This document shows positions 3,037-46,769 of a DNA stretch of 64,000 bases, one piece after another. Below the pieces are notes generated by a model. It did not search any database. It saw only the letters and a list, made by a program, of their open reading frames with translations, and was not told the origin of the DNA. The DNA is from Candidatus Woesearchaeota archaeon (GTDB lineage Archaea; Nanobdellota; Nanobdellia; Pacearchaeales; GW2011-AR1), in assembly GCA_964530945.1 (NCBI GenBank), contig CAZHCJ010000001.1:2140-66139 (forward strand), written 5' to 3'. Numbering within the stretch: position 1 is the first letter of the stretch; the number at the start of each line of letters is the position of its first letter. The translations under genes and the position numbers were made by a program.

Positions 3037-6000
3037 ATGGTTGAAAAAAATCTAAAAAAGAGGGAATCTAAAAAAGAGGATTTGATGATTGAGGCAAAAG
3101 GTTTCTTTGAATCTTACAAAAAAGAAATCGGACAATCATTAAAAAGAGGTAAGGGGGCAATATTCGTTGATTTTATGAGAATCACTGAGCATAGCAGCAA
3201 GCTTTCTGAAGAACTCCTTGTCAATCCAGAAGAAACCCTAAGATTAGTTGAAGTCGCCATAGAAGAACTTGGGTTGATAGATAGTGCTCGTGTGCGTCTT
3301 TTTAACCTTCCCGAAAGCCAGGAAATAGAAATAGGGAACATACGCTCACGTAATTTAAACGAGATGATAGTCATTGAAGGAATTGTCCGCCAAGCTTCTG
3401 AGGTTAGACCACAGGTTGTCAATGCAAAATTCGAATGTCCTAGTTGTGGAACAACTATTTCTGTAATGCAAATGGAAAAAAAATTTCGTGAACCTTCTAG
3501 ATGTTCCTGTGGCCGTAGAGGAGGGTTTAAACTAATTTCTAAAGAGATGGTAGATACACAACGTTTAGTAGTGGAAGAAGCTCCTGAATCCCTTTCAGGA
3601 GGAGAACAACCAAAACGTATGAATGCGTTTCTTAAGGAAGACCTTGTAGAACCAAGCATGGAAGAAAAAACAACTCCTGGTAGCCGAGTAAAAGTAATCG
3701 GTGTTTTAAAAGAAGTCCCGGTTCCAATGCGGACGGGAGGATTATCAACACGTTTTGAATTGGCATTAGAAGTAAACAACATCATTCCTTTGGAAGAAAC
3801 ATTTGAAGATTTAGACATTAATGAAGAAGATGAAAGACAAATTCTTGAATTGTCTCAAGACCCAAAGCTCTATGAAAAACTCAAAAAGAGCATGATTCCA
3901 AGTGTTTGGGGTTATGATGAAATAAAGAAATCTTTAGTCCTGCAATTATTCGGAGGGGTGAGGAAAACCCATGCAGATGGCCAAATAAGTCGTGGCGACT
4001 TCCACATTCTTTTAATTGGAGATCCAGGTGTTGCAAAATCTGCAACTTTGGGCTTTATGGCACGTATCGCCCCCAAAGGACGTTACGTAGTAGGAAAATC
4101 TACAAGCGGAGCTGGATTGACTGCAACTGTTGTTCGTGATGAATATTTAAGAGGTTGGAGCTTAGAAGCAGGTACCATGGTTTTGGCAAACAAAGGCCTT
4201 GTTTGTATTGATGAATTAGAAAAAATGGACCCTCAAGATAGAAGCGCCATGCACGAAGCAATGGAACAACAATGCATGTTGCCAAATTTCGAACTTCTCC
4301 TTTCAAACGGAAAAAATGTTTCAATAGGAAAACTCGTAGATAATCTCATTGAAAAAAACAAAAAATCAGTCTACAAAGGCAAAGATTGTGAAATTTTGCC
4401 TGTAAAAAATCTTGAACTCTTATCTACAGATTTTCAAAAGCATTTTCCCATAAAAGCAGACAGAATCAGCCGCCACAAGGCTCCAAAAGAATTCGTAAAA
4501 ATAACGCTTTCAAATGGGAGAGAGATAACCGTGACTCCAGAACATCCTTGCTGGATTGTTAAAAATGGAGAAATAACAACAATTCCTGCAGAAAAATTGA
4601 AAGAGGGTGGATTTTTCCCTGTTCCCTCAAAAATTGATATAAATGAAAAAAAGTATAAAAAGAAAAATGATGTGTTGTGTAAAATTCTAGGCTATCATAT
4701 TTCTGATGGTTGCTACGAACTAAACAGGGGTAAAAAGAACGGTATACAATTCTGGAACAATGATAAAAAACTTATTGATGATTATAGGATGGCCGTTGAA
4801 GATTACTTCAATGTGAAAACAAGTTTAACTCAAAGAAAACACCAATACGCTGTAAGAGTTGTTTCAAAAAAGGTTGTTGAAAAAATCAAGAAAATAGATA
4901 AAAATTTGTTGGAAAAAGGGAATATTAAAAAAATTCCTGAAAAGATAATGCAACTCCCAAAAGAAAACATAAAATATCTCTTAAGGACCCTCTTTGATGG
5001 GGATGGAACGGTAGTTCTTCAAAAAAGAGGAAGTTGTAAGGTGACTTTAACTACTGAAAACAAAGATTTAGCAAAACAAGTTTCAGATTTACTTTTAAGA
5101 TTTGGGATTCAATCTTCAATATTCAAAGATAAGAATTTTAAGAAAGTGGACATCAGCGGACAAGAAAACCTAGGCTTATTCCTTAGAGAAATAAGCTTCT
5201 TATCTCAAAAGAAAAAGAATAGGTTGAAAAAATATTGTGAAAAAGAAAAAACATACCGTTCTATCAGAGACATAATTCCAGGGTGTACTGAAAAAATAAA
5301 TGAAATTTTCAAAAAATTAAAAATTTCTGCAAGAAAAGAAATAGGTCACTCTATAGATTTGGGAGTTGAAAAACACAGAATTTTCCTTCAAAAACTTGTT
5401 CTCATAGCAAAAAAGAAAATTTCTAAGATAAAAAACCCAAATAAAAAAATAGTTAGAGATTTAGAAAATATAGAAAGATTAGCTTTTGGATATTCTAGAT
5501 GGGTTAAAATAAAAAAAGTAGAAAAAATAAAAAATGAAGGAATACCTTGGGTTTATGATGTAACTATCGAGCCTTTCCACACCTTCATATCAAATGGCAT
5601 GGTTTTGCATAACACTGTAACCATCAGCAAAGCCAATGTTCATGCAACTTTAAGATCCCAAACATCTGTATTAGCAGCCGCAAACCCCAAATTTGGCCGT
5701 TTCGACCCTTATCAATCTATTTCTAGACAAATTGATTTACCTCCAACATTAATTAACCGTTTTGATGTTATCTTCCCTTTGCGTGATTTGCCTGATAAAA
5801 ACAAAGATGAAAAAATTGCTCAACACGTTTTAAGAGAACACCAAGAAACCGGTCAAGAGATGTTTATTCCTAAAGAGCTATTAAGAAAATATGTTGCTTA
5901 TGCTAAGCAAAGAGTGAAACCCATGTTAAGCGATGAAGCAGTCAAAGAAATAAAAAAATTCTATGTGGACTTAAGAAACATGCCTGTAAGCTCAGAAAGC

Positions 6001-6411
6001 TCAATGAAACCAATTCCCATATCTGCAAGACAACTCCAAGCATTAATTCGTTTATCTGAGGCAGCTGCAAAAATGCGCTTAAGCCAAGAGGTCACTTTAG
6101 AAGATACAGAAAGAGCAATTGAAATAATGAAATACTATCTTATGCAAGTCGGTTATGACTACGAATCAAAAACATTCGACATAGATCGTGGAACGGGTGG
6201 AATGCCCGCATCCGAGAGAAATAAAGTCTTCTTAGTAAGGGATACGATCACCCAATTAGAAGAAAAACTCGGAAAAATGATCCCCATAGAAGAAATAGAA
6301 AATGCTTTAGAAGACAAAATGTCAAAAACAGAAATTGAAGAAGCAATAACTAAATTAGATATAAGCGGAGTGATTTTCAAACCACGCCGTGGATATGTCG
6401 GAAAGACCTAA
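3037..6411 (+). CDS. mcm: MCM replicative helicase, interrupted by an intein
   Basis: C4 zinc finger CPSCG...CSCG. Walker A ILLIGDPGVAKS. Walker B CIDELEKMD. HEAMEQQ | intein | TVTISKANVHATLRSQTSVLAAANP. C-terminal winged-helix region. Confidence 0.95.
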   Translation: MVEKNLKKRESKKEDLMIEAKGFFESYKKEIGQSLKRGKGAIFVDFMRITEHSSKLSEELLVNPEETLRLVEVAIEELGLIDSARVRLFNLPESQEIEIGNIRSRNLNEMIVIEGIVRQASEVRPQVVNAKFECPSCGTTISVMQMEKKFREPSRCSCGRRGGFKLISKEMVDTQRLVVEEAPESLSGGEQPKRMNAFLKEDLVEPSMEEKTTPGSRVKVIGVLKEVPVPMRTGGLSTRFELALEVNNIIPLEETFEDLDINEEDERQILELSQDPKLYEKLKKSMIPSVWGYDEIKKSLVLQLFGGVRKTHADGQISRGDFHILLIGDPGVAKSATLGFMARIAPKGRYVVGKSTSGAGLTATVVRDEYLRGWSLEAGTMVLANKGLVCIDELEKMDPQDRSAMHEAMEQQCMLPNFELLLSNGKNVSIGKLVDNLIEKNKKSVYKGKDCEILPVKNLELLSTDFQKHFPIKADRISRHKAPKEFVKITLSNGREITVTPEHPCWIVKNGEITTIPAEKLKEGGFFPVPSKIDINEKKYKKKNDVLCKILGYHISDGCYELNRGKKNGIQFWNNDKKLIDDYRMAVEDYFNVKTSLTQRKHQYAVRVVSKKVVEKIKKIDKNLLEKGNIKKIPEKIMQLPKENIKYLLRTLFDGDGTVVLQKRGSCKVTLTTENKDLAKQVSDLLLRFGIQSSIFKDKNFKKVDISGQENLGLFLREISFLSQKKKNRLKKYCEKEKTYRSIRDIIPGCTEKINEIFKKLKISARKEIGHSIDLGVEKHRIFLQKLVLIAKKKISKIKNPNKKIVRDLENIERLAFGYSRWVKIKKVEKIKNEGIPWVYDVTIEPFHTFISNGMVLHNTVTISKANVHATLRSQTSVLAAANPKFGRFDPYQSISRQIDLPPTLINRFDVIFPLRDLPDKNKDEKIAQHVLREHQETGQEMFIPKELLRKYVAYAKQRVKPMLSDEAVKEIKKFYVDLRNMPVSSESSMKPIPISARQLQALIRLSEAAAKMRLSQEVTLEDTERAIEIMKYYLMQVGYDYESKTFDIDRGTGGMPASERNKVFLVRDTITQLEEKLGKMIPIEEIENALEDKMSKTEIEEAITKLDISGVIFKPRRGYVGKT
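4273..5613 (+). other. Intein (447 aa, LAGLIDADG type) in MCM
   Basis: Begins CMLPNFE (TGC at 4273) directly after EQQ. Ends MVLHN (AAC at 5611-5613) followed by the +1 extein Thr. LAGLIDADG-like blocks ILGYHISDGC and LRTLFDGDGT. Confidence 0.85.
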
Positions 6412-39749: not shown

Positions 39750-40352
39750 ATGGGTTTATTTGGAAAAAAGAAAAAAGAGGGTAAAAATCAGCCTGCCAAA
39801 GGTCAAACAATTCAAAATCAGACCTCTAGCCCTCAATTACCTGAATTACCTAAACTACCTGATTTGCCAAATTCTCAGCCTTCTCAAAAACAAGTCCACC
39901 AACTTCCGAGCATTCCTTCAAGTTCTATAGGAGATAAATTTTCTCAAGACAGTATTAAAGAAGCTGTCTCTGGAAGAAGAGGTGAAGAAGATGATGTTAA
40001 TGGTATTACCCAAATGATACAGAAACCTCAAAGAAAGATGATAAGAGAACTCGATGAGGAAATTGAGGCGGAAGAATTAGGAGTCCCTTCCTTTCCAAAA
40101 AGAACTCAATCATTTAAAGGCAGAAGACACACAGAAGGAGAACCTATATTTGTAAGAATTGATAATTTTGAAGAAGCAATAAAAACCTTTGACGAAGCAA
40201 ATAGTAAATTAGATGAAATGGAAAAGCTTCTCGAAAAAATAAAACAAGTTAAATCAGAGGAAGAACAAGAATTAGTTTCTTGGGAAAAAAATGTTAAAAA
40301 ATTAAAAAGAGAAATTGAAAAAATAGATCAAGATATTTTTTCAAAGATTTAG
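39750..40352 (+). CDS. Hypothetical protein: Pro/Gln-rich N-terminus and coiled-coil C-terminus
   Basis: Shares the motif PIFVRIDNFEEAIKTF with the next ORF (VHVKLEFEEAVRS). Confidence 0.4.
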   Translation: MGLFGKKKKEGKNQPAKGQTIQNQTSSPQLPELPKLPDLPNSQPSQKQVHQLPSIPSSSIGDKFSQDSIKEAVSGRRGEEDDVNGITQMIQKPQRKMIRELDEEIEAEELGVPSFPKRTQSFKGRRHTEGEPIFVRIDNFEEAIKTFDEANSKLDEMEKLLEKIKQVKSEEEQELVSWEKNVKKLKREIEKIDQDIFSKI

Positions 40353-40363
40353 TTCTTTCAAAA

Positions 40364-40756
40364 ATGGCTAAAAAAAGTTCTTCTAAAAATGAGAATTCAA
40401 ACCTTGTCCATGTAAAACTAGAATTTGAAGAAGCGGTTAGGTCCAAAAAAAGTCTCCTAACCATGCAAATGTGGCTTCTTAAATCTGCAAGAAACATTGA
40501 AAAATACAAGTTGCTCAGAATAGAAGAACTTGAATTGAAAGAAAAACTTAGGGAAAAATCAAATCAAACTAAGAAACAAATTAAAAAATTAAAATCTATT
40601 CTTCCCCATCCAAAAATCCCTAAATCAATTAAAAAACCAGGAGAAGGCAGGGAGGAATCTGGAATAAGGCACATTGAAAATAAGGACAATAAGATAGAAA
40701 CCCAACTTTTGGAAATTCAAAGACGTTTAGATGCATTGCAATCTGAAAATATCTAA
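40364..40756 (+). CDS. Hypothetical coiled-coil protein, paralogous to the preceding ORF
   Basis: HVKLEFEEAVRS motif followed by a heptad-rich K/E helix. Confidence 0.4.
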   Translation: MAKKSSSKNENSNLVHVKLEFEEAVRSKKSLLTMQMWLLKSARNIEKYKLLRIEELELKEKLREKSNQTKKQIKKLKSILPHPKIPKSIKKPGEGREESGIRHIENKDNKIETQLLEIQRRLDALQSENI

Positions 40757-40807: not shown

Positions 40808-42565
40808 ATGACAAAGAAAATTACTAGAAAAGAGCTCATAAAAAAATACAAGGAATTTTTCAAGAATAAAAAGCACGAAGTTATACCTTCAGGCTCTTTA
40901 ATTCCTATGAACGACCCTAGTGTTTTATTTACAACGGCAGGAATGCATCCTCTCGTCCCATATCTTTTAGGACAAAAACATCCTCTGGGCAAACGCATAG
41001 TAAATGTCCAAAAATGCATCCGGACTACAGACATAGATGAAGTGGGAGATACAATACATCATACATTTTTCGAGATGCTTGGCAATTGGAGTCTTGGAGA
41101 TTATTGGAAAAAAGAATCTATAGAAATGAGCCTTGAATTTCTCACAAAAAAACTTGGGATTGAAAAAGAGAAACTTGCAGTTTCAGTGTTCAAGGGAAAT
41201 GAAGACGCTCCAAAAGACGAGGAATCCGCAAAAGTTTGGGAGAATCTTAAAATAGGGCGAGAAAGAATCGCTTATCTAGGAAAAAGAGATAACTGGTGGG
41301 GGCCCGCAGGAGAAACAGGTCCATGCGGTCCGGACACTGAAATTTTTTATTGGAACTCTCAATCAGAAATCCCTAAAAAATTCGACCCTCAAGATAAACG
41401 TTGGGTTGAGATTTGGAATAATGTTTTTATGCAATATAATAAAACTTCTGATGGAAAGCTTGAACCTTTAAGTCAAAAAAACGTCGATACCGGGATGGGT
41501 GTTGAACGTACTGTGGCTGCGTTAAATGGAATAAATGATAATTACCTCACAGAAAGCTTCAAGCCACTTATTGACGAAATAGAACATCTCTGGAATATTA
41601 AATATGATTCTGAGAAAAACAAAAGATTAATCCGGATAGTTGCAGACCATATAAAAGCAGCAGTATTTATTGCTGCAGAAGGGATAACTCCTAGCAACAC
41701 AGAACAAGGCTATGTTTTAAGAAAACTAATTAGACGGGCATATACTCTCATCTACAGACATGGAAATAAAGGCGACCTTTTATCTCCGCTTGCTGAGAAA
41801 ATTCTTGATATTTATTCAGATTACAATTTAAGGAGAAAATGGAAGGAAATCTACGAAATAATAAAAAACGAAGAAAGAAAATTTGAAAAGACTATCGAAA
41901 AAGGCTTATCTAAATTTGAATCCATGATAAAAAACAAAAAAGCGCTCTCCGGAAAAGACGCTTTCCTCTTATATCAAAGTTATGGTTTTCCAATAGAACT
42001 CACAATGGAAATGGCTAAAGAAAAAAACGTCACGGTTGATAAAAAAGCTTTTGATAAAGAATATAAAAAACATCAGAAACTTTCAAAAACAGCCTCTAAA
42101 GGACGCTTCAGTTCTGGGCTAGCAGACAAAAGTGAAAAAACAATAAAATTGCATACTGCGACACATCTTCTAAACGAAGCCTTGAGACAAGTTCTCGGAA
42201 AAGAAGTAAAACAAAAAGGTTCGAACATAACTCCTGAACGTTTACGTTTTGATTTCAACTTTCCAAGAAAACTTACTAAAGAAGAGATTAGAAAGTTGGA
42301 AACCCTCGTAAATGAAAAAATAAAACAAGGGCTCAAGGTAACAAGTGAAGAAATGCCCCTCAAAAAGGCTTTAAATTCGGGGGCTCAATCAGAATTTGGA
42401 ACAAAATACCCTGAAGTAGTAAGTGTTTATAGTATTGGAAATTTCAGCAAAGAAATTTGTACCGGACCGCACGTAAAAAACACGAAGGAAATCGGAAAAT
42501 TCAAAATCCTGAAAGAAAAATCAAGTGCTGCAGGAGTAAGAAGAATTCGTGCGGTAGTCGAGTGA
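40808..42565 (+). CDS. alaS: Alanyl-tRNA synthetase, bacterial type and short (585 aa): catalytic domain plus editing core, with no C-Ala domain
   Basis: FTTAGM, HHTFFEMLGNWSLGDYWK, GPCGPDTEIFYW. Editing-core motifs HTATHLL and CTGPHV. A TTTTTAAAA TATA box lies about 25 nt upstream. Confidence 0.85.
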   Translation: MTKKITRKELIKKYKEFFKNKKHEVIPSGSLIPMNDPSVLFTTAGMHPLVPYLLGQKHPLGKRIVNVQKCIRTTDIDEVGDTIHHTFFEMLGNWSLGDYWKKESIEMSLEFLTKKLGIEKEKLAVSVFKGNEDAPKDEESAKVWENLKIGRERIAYLGKRDNWWGPAGETGPCGPDTEIFYWNSQSEIPKKFDPQDKRWVEIWNNVFMQYNKTSDGKLEPLSQKNVDTGMGVERTVAALNGINDNYLTESFKPLIDEIEHLWNIKYDSEKNKRLIRIVADHIKAAVFIAAEGITPSNTEQGYVLRKLIRRAYTLIYRHGNKGDLLSPLAEKILDIYSDYNLRRKWKEIYEIIKNEERKFEKTIEKGLSKFESMIKNKKALSGKDAFLLYQSYGFPIELTMEMAKEKNVTVDKKAFDKEYKKHQKLSKTASKGRFSSGLADKSEKTIKLHTATHLLNEALRQVLGKEVKQKGSNITPERLRFDFNFPRKLTKEEIRKLETLVNEKIKQGLKVTSEEMPLKKALNSGAQSEFGTKYPEVVSVYSIGNFSKEICTGPHVKNTKEIGKFKILKEKSSAAGVRRIRAVVE

Positions 42566-42599: not shown

Positions 42600-43133
42600 T
42601 TAAAGTTTTTTTCTCAAATCCGAAAATGGTTTAAGGACATCAGGATGAAGTGTTCCTTCCAAACCTTTCATGACTTCATCAACAGCTTGCAAATCCGCCA
42701 TTGTATATGTTTTAACGTTTCCAGCTCCAGAACCTTGTGCCACATGTTGCGCCTCTGGCGCCACACCAACGAGACGGCCACCGCCATTGCCGAGATTGCT
42801 CGTGCCATAGACATTCGAACTATTCTCAAGCCTGCCGACATACCACGCCCTCATTTCAGGCATATTACTTTGTGCGTGAATTGGGAAAACTCCCATCGCA
42901 GTATCATAACCAAATCTTTCTTTTCCTTCTGCAAAAATATGATCAACATAATCGTTTAAAAGTGCTTGGTCTCTTGCCAAAATTTTCCAAACAGGATGGG
43001 TTTTTACATCTTCTCTTGACATTTGTTCATTCACTTTTCCAATTTTTCCTTTAAACTCTTCTCCATCCGTTGCATCATATTGCTCCGGAGTTATTGCCAA
43101 CGCGCCACCTATTCTCTGTGTTTCTGGGGTCAT
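42600..43133 (-). CDS. Hypothetical protein of 177 aa, GC-rich (family A/B). Paralog of the gene at 26254..27057.
   Basis: AWYVGRLENSSNVYGTSNLGNGGGRLVGVAPEA. A 100-nt stretch, 42741-42840, is about 56% GC. Shares the 11-nt string ccaccgccatt with its paralog. Confidence 0.6.
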   Translation of the reverse strand: MTPETQRIGGALAITPEQYDATDGEEFKGKIGKVNEQMSREDVKTHPVWKILARDQALLNDYVDHIFAEGKERFGYDTAMGVFPIHAQSNMPEMRAWYVGRLENSSNVYGTSNLGNGGGRLVGVAPEAQHVAQGSGAGNVKTYTMADLQAVDEVMKGLEGTLHPDVLKPFSDLRKKL

Positions 43134-43159
43134 TACATTAAATTATATTCTTAAGCAAA

Positions 43160-44224
43160 TCACTCCAACCTATACTCTTCGGCAAGCATGTACTCTCTTT
43201 CTAAATTATCTTTTTTCCATTGCTTCAAGAAACCCAAAAAATTCCTATCCCTTATATCTTCCAAATCATCTGCATCTCCATACTCCTCTAACCCTTTTGG
43301 AAGAATTATTCCGTCTGAGAGTGTTAAGAGTTCAGGATTCGAATTTAATTTGACACCTCCTACATACGAAATTCCACTATCAGATATTATTGCAGGTCCA
43401 GAAGTTTCAACAAAACAAAAACCAGTGCCATTTAAACTGTGTTTTGAAGGACAACCTACCCCTACCGCTTCATGATTCTCATCACTATAATAAAAGATTG
43501 AGGTTTCATAATCAAGTTCTTTCAATATCAGAGCTAGCAACAAAGACTTCTCTCCACAAATCCCTTCTTCATCAAACAAAACCTCGTAAGGATATCTTGA
43601 ATATGCAATCTTTTGGTTCCTTATGGAAAAAATTTGGTTGGAATGTCCGTAAGGAATGTTTTGGACCATACTTATCGCAATCCTTGCTTGATCTACTTTG
43701 CTTTTTGGTGCAAGATTTTGTATTTTTTTTACCAAAGGCAAAACAGTTTCTCTTTGCAAAGAATCATCCAACCCTTGATATTTAAAATCTAAACGGGAAA
43801 TATTTTCTTGAGAAGAATCAATTCCACGAGGAAGATTTCCAACATAATCATCTATTCCAGAAAAAACTGTAAAAATTGTGCTTTTCATTTTTCCTTCCAA
43901 AACATAGGTTAAGTTAATATCTCTTGGATTTTGATGCTCTAAAGAAACACAAAAATCTCCTTGCTTAAAAAAATCGAAATTTTCTGAACTCGGACAACCG
44001 CAACGAGTTGCGTTTTCAACCAAAACCCCTTCGTCACAAAAGTATGGTTTATCTATCGAACACGAATCATAAGGAGTCCCATCCCCACATTCTAGAACTA
44101 AAGTCTTGGGAACCTCATCCCCACCTGCTAAAGCAAAAATTCCCAAAATTAAAAATACTAAGATTAAAACCGCCCCGAATATGTAATTCCCATGCAATTC
44201 TAATGCCTCTTTTAAATTCAACAT
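43160..44224 (-). CDS. Membrane-anchored transglutaminase-like (papain-fold Cys-His-Asp) protein with a Cys-rich ectodomain
   Basis: N-terminal TM IFGAVLILVFLILGIFALA. Cys-rich segment CGDG..C..C..C.C. Core GICGEKSLLLALILKELDYE ... NHEAVGV ... FCFVETSG. Ends 27 nt upstream of the GC-rich paralog. Confidence 0.55.
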   Translation of the reverse strand: MLNLKEALELHGNYIFGAVLILVFLILGIFALAGGDEVPKTLVLECGDGTPYDSCSIDKPYFCDEGVLVENATRCGCPSSENFDFFKQGDFCVSLEHQNPRDINLTYVLEGKMKSTIFTVFSGIDDYVGNLPRGIDSSQENISRLDFKYQGLDDSLQRETVLPLVKKIQNLAPKSKVDQARIAISMVQNIPYGHSNQIFSIRNQKIAYSRYPYEVLFDEEGICGEKSLLLALILKELDYETSIFYYSDENHEAVGVGCPSKHSLNGTGFCFVETSGPAIISDSGISYVGGVKLNSNPELLTLSDGIILPKGLEEYGDADDLEDIRDRNFLGFLKQWKKDNLEREYMLAEEYRLE

Positions 44225-44261: not shown

Positions 44262-46769
44262 TTACTCAAGATAAATCCCTGGCTTGCCTGTTTTGACTTT
44301 CTTTGATTTGTTTTCCGGGTCATACTTATCTTTCTCATTTACTGCATAAATTTTTATTTCTAAACTTGTCTTTTTCTCAATATAATCTTTCTTTCCAAGA
44401 TAGACTTTCTTTTCCTGAGGCAGAACATAAATATGTGCCTTACTGACATTTGTTTCGACAAGTTCTAAGATTTTATTTACATCCTCAATAAGCATCTCAA
44501 CAAATTCTTCCTCTTTCTCCAAGCTCTCGTTGATTTTGCTTTCATCAACTTTAGGCCAACTTTCAACACTTAACATCTTTTTATTTCCAAGTTTCTGCCA
44601 AATCTCTTCGGTTATGTGCGGGCAAAAAACATGTAAAAGTTTTAAGAATTTCTCAAAAGACTTCTTGTCCGCACCCTGTTCTAAATGATTAAACAACTCA
44701 CGAATTTTTATTACAGCTAAATCATATCTCATCTCTTGAACATCTTTGCTCACAAGTTTAATTGTCTTGTTTAATTTGTGATCTGTAAGGGCATCAATTT
44801 TTGTGTCAAACTGATTTTTCTCCGCAAAGCCAATGACATTCCTCACAAATCTTAAACTTCCTTCAATTCCTTCATCGCTCCAGTGCCTGTCTTTATCTGG
44901 AGAACCTATGGAAACTAAAAATAGCCTGGCAGTGTCTATCCCATACTTGTCACTTATAACGTCCGGGTAAACTCCATTGCCCCTTGATTTGGACATCACA
45001 TATCCATCCTCTCCATGAAGCATTCCTTGGTTAAACAAATTCTTGAAAGGTTCATCAATTTCCAAGAAACCTAAATCTCTCAAAGCCTTAACAAAAAATC
45101 TAGCATAAATAAGATGCATTGTTGCATGCTCTGCCCCTCCTATATACTGGTCAACAGGCATCCAATACCCAACTTTTTTAGCTCCAAAAGGTTTTTTCGA
45201 ATTCTTATTATCGCAATACCTCAGGTAGTACCATGAACTGTCAAAAAACGTGTCCATAGTGTCTGTTTCTCTTCTGGCATTAGCGTTACATTTGGGACAC
45301 TTAGCCTCAAGCCATTTTTTGTTTGTCAACAAAGGATTCCCTTTTCCAAACCTAACTTCCTCAGGAAGCTTAACAGGCAAGTCTTTTTCAGGAACAGGAA
45401 CAACTCCACACTTTTCACAATAAACAATTGGAATGGGGGTCCCCCAATATCTCTGTCTTGAAACGAGCCAATCTCTTAGCTTGAATTGCACTTTACTTCT
45501 AGCTTTCTTTTTTCTTTCCAAATGTGCTGTAATCTTCTTTATTGCCTCATTACTTTTAACTCCATTGAATTCTCCAGAATTAACCAAGTATCCTTCTCCA
45601 GTATATGCTCTTGGAATCTCTCCTTTCCGTTCATAAATCTCGTAGTCTTTAGGCTCAACAACAACTTCCACGGGCAAGCCATACTTTTCAGCAAACTCAA
45701 AATCACGTTGGTCATGAGCGGGCACGCCCATCACCATTCCACTACCATAATCTGCGACAACAAAATTCCCTGCATAAATCGGAACTTTCTCTCCACTAAT
45801 GGGATTTGTTGCATAGCTTCCTGTAAAAACACCTTCTTTTTCAAGGCCTTCAAGTTCTTTTTCGCTAATGGATTTTATTTTTTTCAGAAAGGATTCAACT
45901 TTCTTTCTTTGTTCTTTTGTGACCAAATTCATCAGTTCAGGATGTTGGGCAGAAACAACCATAAACTTAACCCCATAAATAGTATCAGGCCTTGTGGTGA
46001 AAATCTTCCAAACCTTACCATTTATATCAAAATCTATTTCTGTCCCCTCACTGCGACCAATCCAATTCTTTTGCATGATTTTAATCCTGCGAGGCCAATT
46101 CAAAGTGTCCACCTTATCCAAAAGCTCTTCCGCATATTCAGTAGTTTTTAGGAACCACTGCTTCAATTGTTTTACCTCCACTTCTGTATCTTCGTGGCGC
46201 CAACACTTACCATTATGAACCTGCTCATTTGCAAGAACCGTGTCGCATTTAGGACACCAATTAACATTTGAAAGTTTTCTGTAAGCCAATCCTTTTTCCA
46301 AGAATTTCAAAAAGAAAAACTGATTCCATTTATAATACTCTACATCAGAAGTTTTCAAAGTTCGCCTCCAATCATAACTCAATCCAAGAGTCTTTAATTG
46401 AGAAGTATAATTCCGTGTTGAGTGTTTAATAGTCTCTTTAGGATGTTTTTTTTCTTTTATTGCGGCATTTTCGGCAGGCAAACCAAAACTATCATAACCC
46501 ATTGCATAAAGAACATTAAATCCATTCATTCTCTTAAATCTGGAAAAAACATCTCCTATTGTGTAATTAAAGGCGTGGCCCATGTGAAGCTTTGAACCAG
46601 AAGGGTATGGGAACATCTCAATCACAGTAAATTTTTTCTTTCCAGATTTCAAACTAACCTCAAACACTTTCTCCTTTTCCCACTTCTTCTGCCACTTCTT
46701 TTCAATTTTTGCAAAATCAAATTTAGTTTTCTTTTTCTCTGTCTTTTTCTTAAGTTTTTTCTTAGCCAT
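44262..46769 (-). CDS. leuS: Leucyl-tRNA synthetase (bacterial-like)
   Basis: HIGH motif HMGHAFNYTIGD. KMSKS motif VMSKSRGN. YAMGYDSFGLPAENAAIKE. Confidence 0.9.
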   Translation of the reverse strand: MAKKKLKKKTEKKKTKFDFAKIEKKWQKKWEKEKVFEVSLKSGKKKFTVIEMFPYPSGSKLHMGHAFNYTIGDVFSRFKRMNGFNVLYAMGYDSFGLPAENAAIKEKKHPKETIKHSTRNYTSQLKTLGLSYDWRRTLKTSDVEYYKWNQFFFLKFLEKGLAYRKLSNVNWCPKCDTVLANEQVHNGKCWRHEDTEVEVKQLKQWFLKTTEYAEELLDKVDTLNWPRRIKIMQKNWIGRSEGTEIDFDINGKVWKIFTTRPDTIYGVKFMVVSAQHPELMNLVTKEQRKKVESFLKKIKSISEKELEGLEKEGVFTGSYATNPISGEKVPIYAGNFVVADYGSGMVMGVPAHDQRDFEFAEKYGLPVEVVVEPKDYEIYERKGEIPRAYTGEGYLVNSGEFNGVKSNEAIKKITAHLERKKKARSKVQFKLRDWLVSRQRYWGTPIPIVYCEKCGVVPVPEKDLPVKLPEEVRFGKGNPLLTNKKWLEAKCPKCNANARRETDTMDTFFDSSWYYLRYCDNKNSKKPFGAKKVGYWMPVDQYIGGAEHATMHLIYARFFVKALRDLGFLEIDEPFKNLFNQGMLHGEDGYVMSKSRGNGVYPDVISDKYGIDTARLFLVSIGSPDKDRHWSDEGIEGSLRFVRNVIGFAEKNQFDTKIDALTDHKLNKTIKLVSKDVQEMRYDLAVIKIRELFNHLEQGADKKSFEKFLKLLHVFCPHITEEIWQKLGNKKMLSVESWPKVDESKINESLEKEEEFVEMLIEDVNKILELVETNVSKAHIYVLPQEKKVYLGKKDYIEKKTSLEIKIYAVNEKDKYDPENKSKKVKTGKPGIYLE

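Follow-up and report, generated by a model that had tools for sequence, protein, structure and literature searches.

A transglutaminase-like gene and a truncated retroelement target gene, probably neighbours by accident of insertion, in a Woesearchaeota genome

Two genes lie on the same strand of an archaeal contig with 26 nt between them, and the question that this locus raises is whether their products work together or whether the genes came to stand side by side in some other way. The locus is part of a stretch of 64,000 nt from contig CAZHCJ010000001.1 of a Candidatus Woesearchaeota archaeon (assembly GCA_964530945.1), which we call the window, and all window-wide negative results hold within those 64 kb. 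Gene A encodes a predicted membrane-anchored transglutaminase-like protein, and gene B, downstream of it, is a GC-rich gene that the initial annotation took for the substrate or partner of the enzyme in an operon-like pair. Our results make it probable that A and B are neighbours by accident of insertion, A being a conserved surface enzyme gene and B the decayed remnant of a diversity-generating retroelement (DGR) cassette. The coordinates of both open reading frames (ORFs) and their common minus strand were confirmed, while the spacing, earlier given as 27 nt, is 26 nt. The junction is built as follows:

43160..44224, minus strand: gene A, an ORF of 354 amino acids (aa) for a predicted membrane-anchored transglutaminase-like protein of a conserved DPANN family
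43134..43159, minus strand: spacer between A and B, 26 nt from the A stop codon to the B start codon, TTTGCTTAAGAATATAATTTAATGTA
42600..43133, minus strand: gene B (B′), 177 aa, a 5′-truncated gene for an AvpA-like DGR variable protein
44262..46769, minus strand: leucyl-tRNA synthetase (LeuRS), the conserved upstream neighbour of A, with a 37-nt gap that contains TTTTTTATAATT
40808..42565, plus strand: alanyl-tRNA synthetase (AlaRS), convergent, with 34 nt between the B stop codon and the AlaRS end

The pairing was followed from both sides. On the side of A, 85 loci were collected (three protein look-ups and 80 metagenome loci, with the totals as given), and 60 of them had at least 700 nt of sequence downstream of A. 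The common gene order is EndA(-), LeuRS(+), A(+), AlaRS(-), where EndA is the tRNA-splicing endonuclease. In 38 of the 60 loci the distance from A to AlaRS is no more than 400 nt, and B was found downstream of A in none of the 60. In the closest relative (L058, with A identity of 65%), the gap from A to AlaRS measures 10 nt and has no B in it. Since most relatives have A abutting AlaRS, B′ reads as an insertion between the two. On the side of B, gene A was upstream at one of the 38 B genome loci with enough upstream sequence, namely L023, and the other contexts of B included a restriction-modification/defence island, a thermosome gene and a different aminoacyl-tRNA synthetase. A is a vertically inherited gene inside a conserved EndA-LeuRS-A-AlaRS block, and the synteny expected of an operon of enzyme and partner failed to appear.

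The same junction holds extra DNA of other kinds elsewhere (PIN/VapC-type toxin-antitoxin pairs, a 219-aa short-chain-dehydrogenase-like gene and other small ORFs of no recognised function), and the convergent A/AlaRS junction looks like a permissive insertion site. Inserts were recorded there in L087, L112, L133, L127, L104, L105, L135, L070, L118, L069 and L074. The defence-type island that carries a B cassette (L005:1-10792) also contains Cas1, a type III-like methyltransferase and ResIII helicase, a UvrD-like helicase and a Schlafen/AlbA_2 gene.

What kind of gene, then, was inserted? Two elements inside B are needed here:

42762..42850, minus strand: variable region (VR) of B, codons 95-124, in register with the VRs and the template repeats (TRs) of related loci
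42749..42761, minus strand: hairpin GCGCC-AGA-GGCGC, GCGCCAGAGGCGC, directly after the VR on its 3′ side; part of the conserved APEA is encoded in it

The family to which B belongs was recognised by its repeats. At locus L005, a segment of 89 nt of the B gene is repeated 996 nt downstream, and 15/15 differences between the two copies fall at adenines of the downstream one. In a survey of the 52 genome loci found by the B-family profile and of the first context look-ups, 31 TR-VR pairs were present in 23 loci, with 398 of the 417 mismatches (95%) at TR adenines. A reverse transcriptase (RT) of about 470 aa lies beside B in 20 of the 36 genome loci with enough downstream sequence (at least 1.8 kb). 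This RT has a match to Pfam RVT_1 and contains YVDD as well as LGNLTSQ, which is the [I/L]GxxxSQ signature of DGR reverse transcriptases. The palindrome GCGCC-RGA-GGCGC stands directly after every VR shown and is missing after the TRs, and the hairpin of window B is found at the same place as in all active loci shown. In an intact cassette, the RT copies the template repeat into the variable region of B with adenine-specific errors.

At the level of structure, the model of the B family (predicted local distance difference test score, pLDDT, of 68.8, with low confidence around the VR) had one significant match in PDB, which is AvpA (5ioo; E 7.9e-4, probability 1.0), and a search of PDB sequences with the B-family profile at E<=10 gave no match, AvpA included. 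Because there is a structural match and a shared layout without a match at the sequence level, the B family is one of AvpA-like C-type-lectin DGR variable proteins that are distant from AvpA.

Several details of these cassettes were recorded along the way. The TR flanks are shared in L005, L007, L011, L016, L017, L029, L030 and L038, with RGCTATGCTYTS on the upstream side and ACTCAC...ACAGGAC on the downstream side. GGAATA stands at the 3′ boundary of the TR, where 7/8 VRs shown read GGTATA (L007 keeps GGAATA), with GGTGTG in the window. The invariant APEA encoded by the hairpin may be constrained at the DNA level. Two tandem B genes occur in L013, L014, L020, L037, L040, L041, L045-L048 and L050, and in seven tandem loci a TR was detected that matches both variable regions. 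B loci with no RT make up 16/36 (L010, L012, L015, L021, L022, L026, L031, L032, L034, L039, L049, L051-L053, L055 and L056), and orphan or remote copies of this type of DGR target are common.

The window copy matches the family hidden Markov model (HMM) with an E-value of 1.5e-85, and it is short at one end. B homologs are nearly all 260-270 aa long, typically about 264 aa; window B begins at the family's Met88 and continues with about 70% identity to the end. Codons 1-87 were found nowhere in the 64 kb, an in-frame stop lies three codons upstream of the B ATG, and the spacer of 26 nt is too short for the missing 87 codons. A natural short isoform was considered as a general pattern and rejected, as the short members P0219 and P0240 are frameshifted full-length genes, and the clean truncation is therefore peculiar to the window copy. 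The B genes at L143:1347-2158 and L144:1731-2475, called as 162 and 181 aa, are full-length but frameshifted, and may be pseudogenes or assembly errors. By analogy with AvpA, residues 1-87 would hold beta1, alpha1, alpha2, insert 2 and the beta3 motif, so the truncated protein would be unable to form a complete lectin fold.

The members of the B family have no signal peptide, no hydrophobic or membrane segment and a median of one Cys. With no hydrophobic segment and so few cysteines, their sequences show little resemblance to those of exported proteins that would work with an enzyme outside the cell.

The GC content of B, which had been noticed earlier, finds its explanation in the same mechanism. 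The window has about 34% GC and is AT-rich, with archaeal housekeeping genes (EndA, LeuRS, AlaRS, MCM, FtsZ and deoxyhypusine synthase), and its GC-richest 300-nt bin is 42601-42900 (46.7%), in the 3′ half of B, where GC peaks at 53-58% over gene nucleotides 301-420. The window VR (42762-42850) has 15 A and 57% GC, to be compared with 8-18 A and 52-64% GC in active VRs and with 25-27 A and 47-52% GC in TRs. Adenine-specific copying strips adenines from the VR and makes the VR GC-rich; the patch is GC-rich because of its adenine-depleted VR plus the GC hairpin. The anomaly is the footprint of adenine-specific mutagenesis together with that hairpin, and not the mark of a gene family within the window. 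The initial annotation was right about the GC-rich neighbour and mistaken in calling it a paralog: tblastn, short-word blastn and the family HMM over six-frame ORFs found no second copy of B in the window. A check of three further GC-rich stretches of coding sequence showed only housekeeping genes, namely FtsZ, MCM and the prolyl-tRNA synthetase (ProRS). The window also holds no template repeat or other repeat of 42600-43133 and no reverse transcriptase (best tblastn E 0.014).

How a fragment of a DGR target came to follow A is suggested by a few genomes in which more of the cassette is left. At L145:4853-7314 the order is EndA-LeuRS-A-B(full length)-TR-RT, where the TR has 8/8 mismatches at adenines and the RT is cut by the contig end; the B copy of this locus, P0124, is the second-closest to window B. 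At L023 the order is EndA-LeuRS-A-B(full length), followed by the contig end. A further contig of the same metagenome-assembled genome (MAG) as L023, L033:3-3192, starts inside a second B copy, and 26 nt further on it has the N-terminal 183 residues of an RT and then AlaRS, the TR and the rest of the RT being deleted. Joining L023 and L033 into one overlapping gene was considered and rejected, as the two B copies are 76% identical in DNA. L147 was likewise rejected as a further LeuRS-linked cassette, its synthetase being 25% identical to LeuRS.

To hypothesize, the whole cassette (B, TR and RT) would have inserted at the A/AlaRS junction and would then have decayed in stages, from the intact form (L145), through deletion of the TR and most of the RT (L033), to the 3′ two-thirds of B (the window) and to nothing at all (most genomes). 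This order of decay events is our inference from the forms seen today. On the simplest reading, a single old insertion was followed by repeated losses, and repeated insertion at a permissive junction is also possible, since the B of L023 ranks 24/154 in similarity to window B. The truncation would also have cost B its promoter. In L145 a TTTATAAATA box is located about 29 nt before the B ATG, and the 26 nt that separate the A stop from the B ATG in the window leave no room for a promoter at that spacing.

The other half of the question is what A does, and its parts, all on the minus strand, are the following:

44126..44182, minus strand: predicted transmembrane anchor, residues 15-33, N-in/C-out, Kyte-Doolittle 3.07 (helix 4-33 in the model)
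43949..44089, minus strand: six-cysteine module (C46, C55, C63, C75, C77 and C92), predicted extracellular
43316..43633, minus strand: transglutaminase-like core, residues ~198-303
43556-43558, minus strand: codon of C223
43472-43474, minus strand: codon of H251
43406-43408, minus strand: codon of E273
43379-43381, minus strand: codon of D282

The family of gene A is a large one. In a word-indexed search there were 712 matches, the best 120 of which all have E<1e-89, and with an exhaustive profile search the number of representative clusters came to 3252 at E<=1e-3, of which 591 reached E<=1e-30. Source names exist for few homologs of A and B; most of them are Pacearchaeota or Nanoarchaeota and a couple are bacterial, and the loci that were fetched carry the labels of Woesearchaeota, Pacearchaeota or Nanoarchaeota MAGs. 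NCBIfam, PHROGs and Pfam gave nothing meaningful for window protein A or B. Judged by its sequences, the A family is unannotated in every source and appears to be divergent transglutaminase-like. A TATA-like TTTTTTATAATT lies about 28 nt before the A ATG, so that A need not be co-transcribed with LeuRS.

Across 54 aligned homologs, six Cys (46-92), G221, C223, K226, N250, H251, C258, C270, E273 and D282 are invariant, and C223 and H251 were also invariant in a check of 12 sequences that included L145 and L023. The motifs GICGEKS, NHEAVGV and FCFVETSG correspond to residues 221-227, 250-256 and 269-276. The AlphaFold (AF2) model, built on the 54-homolog alignment, has a pLDDT of 91.9 and a predicted template modelling score (pTM) of 0.86. 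In this model helix 223-236 has C223 at its N-terminus, H251 begins strand 251-257 and E273 is placed just after strand 269-272, which is, as modelled, the topology of papain-like and transglutaminase-like enzymes.

A Foldseek search of PDB with the model of A returned LapG, CPR-C4, PNGase, 3isr, 3kd4, Rad4, menin, transglutaminase 2 (TGase2), factor XIII and PeiP, with probabilities of 0.97-1.0 for the top matches and with the core as the only aligned part. The Pfam family Transglut_core (PF01841) was matched below threshold by 40/54 homologs, with scores of 16-20 bits against a gathering cut-off of 23, and the archaeal DUF553 (PF04473) by 28/54. Profile positions ~10-84 of Transglut_core map onto the region from the Cys helix to the His strand, and a longer paralog, P0259, scores 23.2 bits, above the Pfam cut-off of 23. 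The family profile found no match among all PDB sequences at E<=10, LapG included. The fold call is supported by the structure model, the Foldseek matches, the weak but recurrent Transglut_core matches and the invariant Cys and His, and we regard A as having a predicted transglutaminase-like fold, with Cys223-His251-Glu273 as the predicted catalytic triad. Of the Cys-His-Asp core that had been proposed, the Cys and the His stand, and the Asp was not confirmed: FCFVETSG contains none, the invariant acid at that place is Glu273, and a separate invariant Asp is found at residue 282. The proposed profile match was seen below threshold in homologs and above it in P0259, and not in the window protein itself.

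The proposed N-terminal anchor and Cys-rich ectodomain also fared well, with a predicted helix at 15-33 and the six invariant Cys. All 120 listed homologs (the best of 712) have a strongly hydrophobic N-terminal segment; in the same 120 the 15 residues that precede the helix hold a median of 4 Lys and Arg, against 1 beyond it, and the median Cys count is nine, that is, one presumed catalytic residue and eight others. On the basis of the hydrophobic segment, the Lys and Arg bias and the cysteine counts, we infer a single N-terminal helix with the N-terminus inside and the C-terminus outside, and extracellular disulfide-bonded domains.

The six-cysteine module spans about 45 residues, with the consensus CxDGTxYxxCSxxKPYYCxxGxLxxxxxxCGCPxxxxxxGDxC, and no Pfam model matches it. 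Longer paralogs of A hold 2-4 copies, and an exhaustive search found 38 copies in a protein of 7312 aa, 16 in one of 1809 aa and 13 in one of 2502 aa. The 1809-aa protein has a hydrophobic segment near its C-terminus and the 2502-aa protein a subtilase domain; P0241, P0301, P0378 and P0259 were noted as bearers of the module. From its distribution over these sequences it appears to be a mobile module.

Taken as a whole, one N-terminal helix would tether A in the membrane, and outside the cell the protein would show the six-cysteine module, an alpha/beta spacer domain and the transglutaminase-like (papain-like) core. It would act outside the cell as a cysteine hydrolase tethered to the membrane and relying on C223, H251 and E273, and may process surface proteins as LapG trims a giant adhesin. 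LapG frees the giant repeat adhesin LapA from the cell surface. A is most likely a cell-surface cysteine protease or isopeptidase. Since its best structural neighbours are hydrolases and its module is common to giant repeat proteins of the same organisms, the processing of surface proteins or adhesins is the most attractive guess, and cross-linking or another substrate is possible.

The alternative that survives best concerns this role, and it is that A is not a protease and is either a true cross-linking transglutaminase of surface proteins or a non-catalytic scaffold or adhesin. The fold is common to the cross-linking TGase2 and factor XIII and to the non-enzymatic Rad4 and menin, and a cysteine-rich module found both in A and in giant surface proteins suggests a binding role. 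However, the best structural matches (LapG, CPR-C4, PNGase and PeiP) are hydrolases, and a Cys, a His and an acidic residue that are invariant in 54 homologs argue against a non-catalytic scaffold. We hold this alternative to be rather unlikely.

Some observations speak against the reading of A as a surface enzyme gene and B as a decayed cassette remnant. For A, the Foldseek E-values are just ~1e-3 and the TM-scores 0.2-0.26 on the query; even at E<=10, Pfam gives no match to the window protein; and the third triad position is an invariant Glu273 where Asp is the usual residue, with an invariant Asp282 nine residues on. For B, the window copy deviates at 1 of the 39 columns that are at least 90% conserved, which is also the median of the other members, and its ORF is intact with the hairpin kept. 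Since constraint does not appear relaxed and the ORF is intact, either the truncation happened not long ago or selection continues to act on the shortened form. Finally, A and B are adjacent in three divergent genomes (the window, L023 and L145, with A identity of 45-47%), which goes beyond one chance event, although the adjacency is explained by an old insertion that they have in common, with subsequent losses.

The intact ORF leads to the next alternative, in which truncated B is a live remote DGR target with a functional short protein, its RT and TR being elsewhere in the genome. Besides the 177 intact codons and the 1/39 changed columns, the window VR is adenine-depleted like active VRs, the hairpin 3′ of it is kept and RT-less B loci are common, as given above. 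DGRs with remote targets are known. Against this, the protein lacks residues 1-87, so that a complete lectin fold seems impossible, the VR ends in GGTGTG and not in the GGTATA of the family, no RT and no TR are present in the 64-kb window, and the native promoter region of B is gone. We consider a live target unlikely.

It seems very unlikely that A and B are transcribed together as a functional unit in which B would be the substrate or partner of a surface transglutaminase or protease. The arrangement is inviting, as both genes lie on one strand 26 nt apart with no evident terminator, B has no promoter at the usual spacing and would be readable just by read-through from A, a DGR cassette gene comes straight after A in a further two genomes (L023 and L145), and the fragment retains the conserved residues of its family. 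Yet B is absent from all 60 A loci and A stands beside 1 of the 38 B genome loci; A is kept in genomes without B, the closest relative included; B cassettes occur in many unrelated contexts (restriction-modification systems, a thermosome gene, another aminoacyl-tRNA synthetase); unrelated inserts occupy the A/AlaRS junction in other genomes; and B has no signal peptide or membrane segment, while the domain of A is predicted to be extracellular. The operon-with-partner reading is not supported, because the pairing is not conserved and B is a truncated DGR target without a signal peptide. That the cassette follows A not by chance, with a hypervariable lectin-like protein that works with A (for example, attached to or released from the surface) and a short B kept as a functional form, is the least credible of these ideas and highly improbable.

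With accidental neighbourhood by insertion as the preferred reading, the locus is of interest for two reasons. The junction presents a DGR cassette at a conserved convergent site, whole in one genome, half decayed in a second and all but lost in the window, and this decay series would show where orphan GC-rich gene fragments in streamlined DPANN genomes come from. Members of the A family, for their part, appear to be extracellular transglutaminase-like proteins that share a six-cysteine module with giant surface proteins, and a conserved surface protease in presumed host-attached organisms would be a reasonable candidate for the control of adhesins, which is offered as an idea only.

Elsewhere in the window, an intein that carries a LAGLIDADG homing-endonuclease domain interrupts the MCM helicase gene (3037-6411, plus strand, 1124 aa). 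Directly upstream of AlaRS are two lysine/glutamate-rich charged ORFs (39750-40352 and 40364-40756, plus strand) that match nothing in Pfam; similarly sized ORFs without a Pfam family adjoin AlaRS in the related loci L058, L059 and L061.

Among known systems, B is best compared with AvpA, a Nanoarchaeota DGR variable protein of 256 aa with a C-type-lectin fold over residues 8-209, in which the VR at 181-203 is followed by a 46-residue helical tail whose DNA holds a hairpin/cruciform (Handa et al. 2016, PMC5006420). Its beta1, from about residue 8, pairs with beta5 after the VR, insert 2 props up the VR, and the motifs are GxxVVVYAH, HPxxxPFxG and RFxGV (PMC5006420). The B family resembles it in length (~260 aa), in the VR at ~181-212, in a helical tail of ~50 residues and in a hairpin inside the coding sequence. 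The consensus motifs GDAVVYH (64-70), HPVWK (134-138) and RLVGI (208-212) resemble those of AvpA when compared by eye, and identity in the structural alignment is 17%. Window B keeps the second motif (H46-K50) and the third (R120-V124), whereas the first is gone with the first 87 residues, and in this it departs from AvpA, since the N-terminal core elements of the lectin fold are missing.

With DGRs of the Bordetella phage BPP-1 type, and with the DPANN DGRs of Paul et al. 2015 and 2017, the B loci share adenine-specific TR-VR pairs (95%), the RT motifs and a GC hairpin 3′ of the VR. Unlike these systems, the window holds a fragment of the target gene alone, which is a remnant or orphan and no cassette.

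For A, the best structural match of the core is LapG (PDB 4FGQ, 4U65), and in both proteins the catalytic domain is, or for A is predicted to be, outside the cytoplasmic membrane. Unlike LapG, A is apparently membrane-anchored and has a six-cysteine module, an extra alpha/beta domain and Glu as the third triad residue. The occurrence of the A module in giant repeat-rich surface proteins may recall the giant substrate LapA. The CPR-C4 protease of Candidate Phyla Radiation bacteria is about 215 aa long and forms a soluble homodimer; its triad is Cys-His-Leu(carbonyl), and it has a zinc site (PMC9108980). A differs in its predicted membrane anchor and in the acidic side chain, invariant in its family, that takes the third position. 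The structure of CPR-C4 (PDB 7OB7) has the transglutaminase-like cysteine protease fold, as predicted for A, the spacing from the His to the third position is 22 residues in both (H93-L115 in CPR-C4, H251-E273 in A), and both proteins come from ultra-small, presumed symbiotic organisms.

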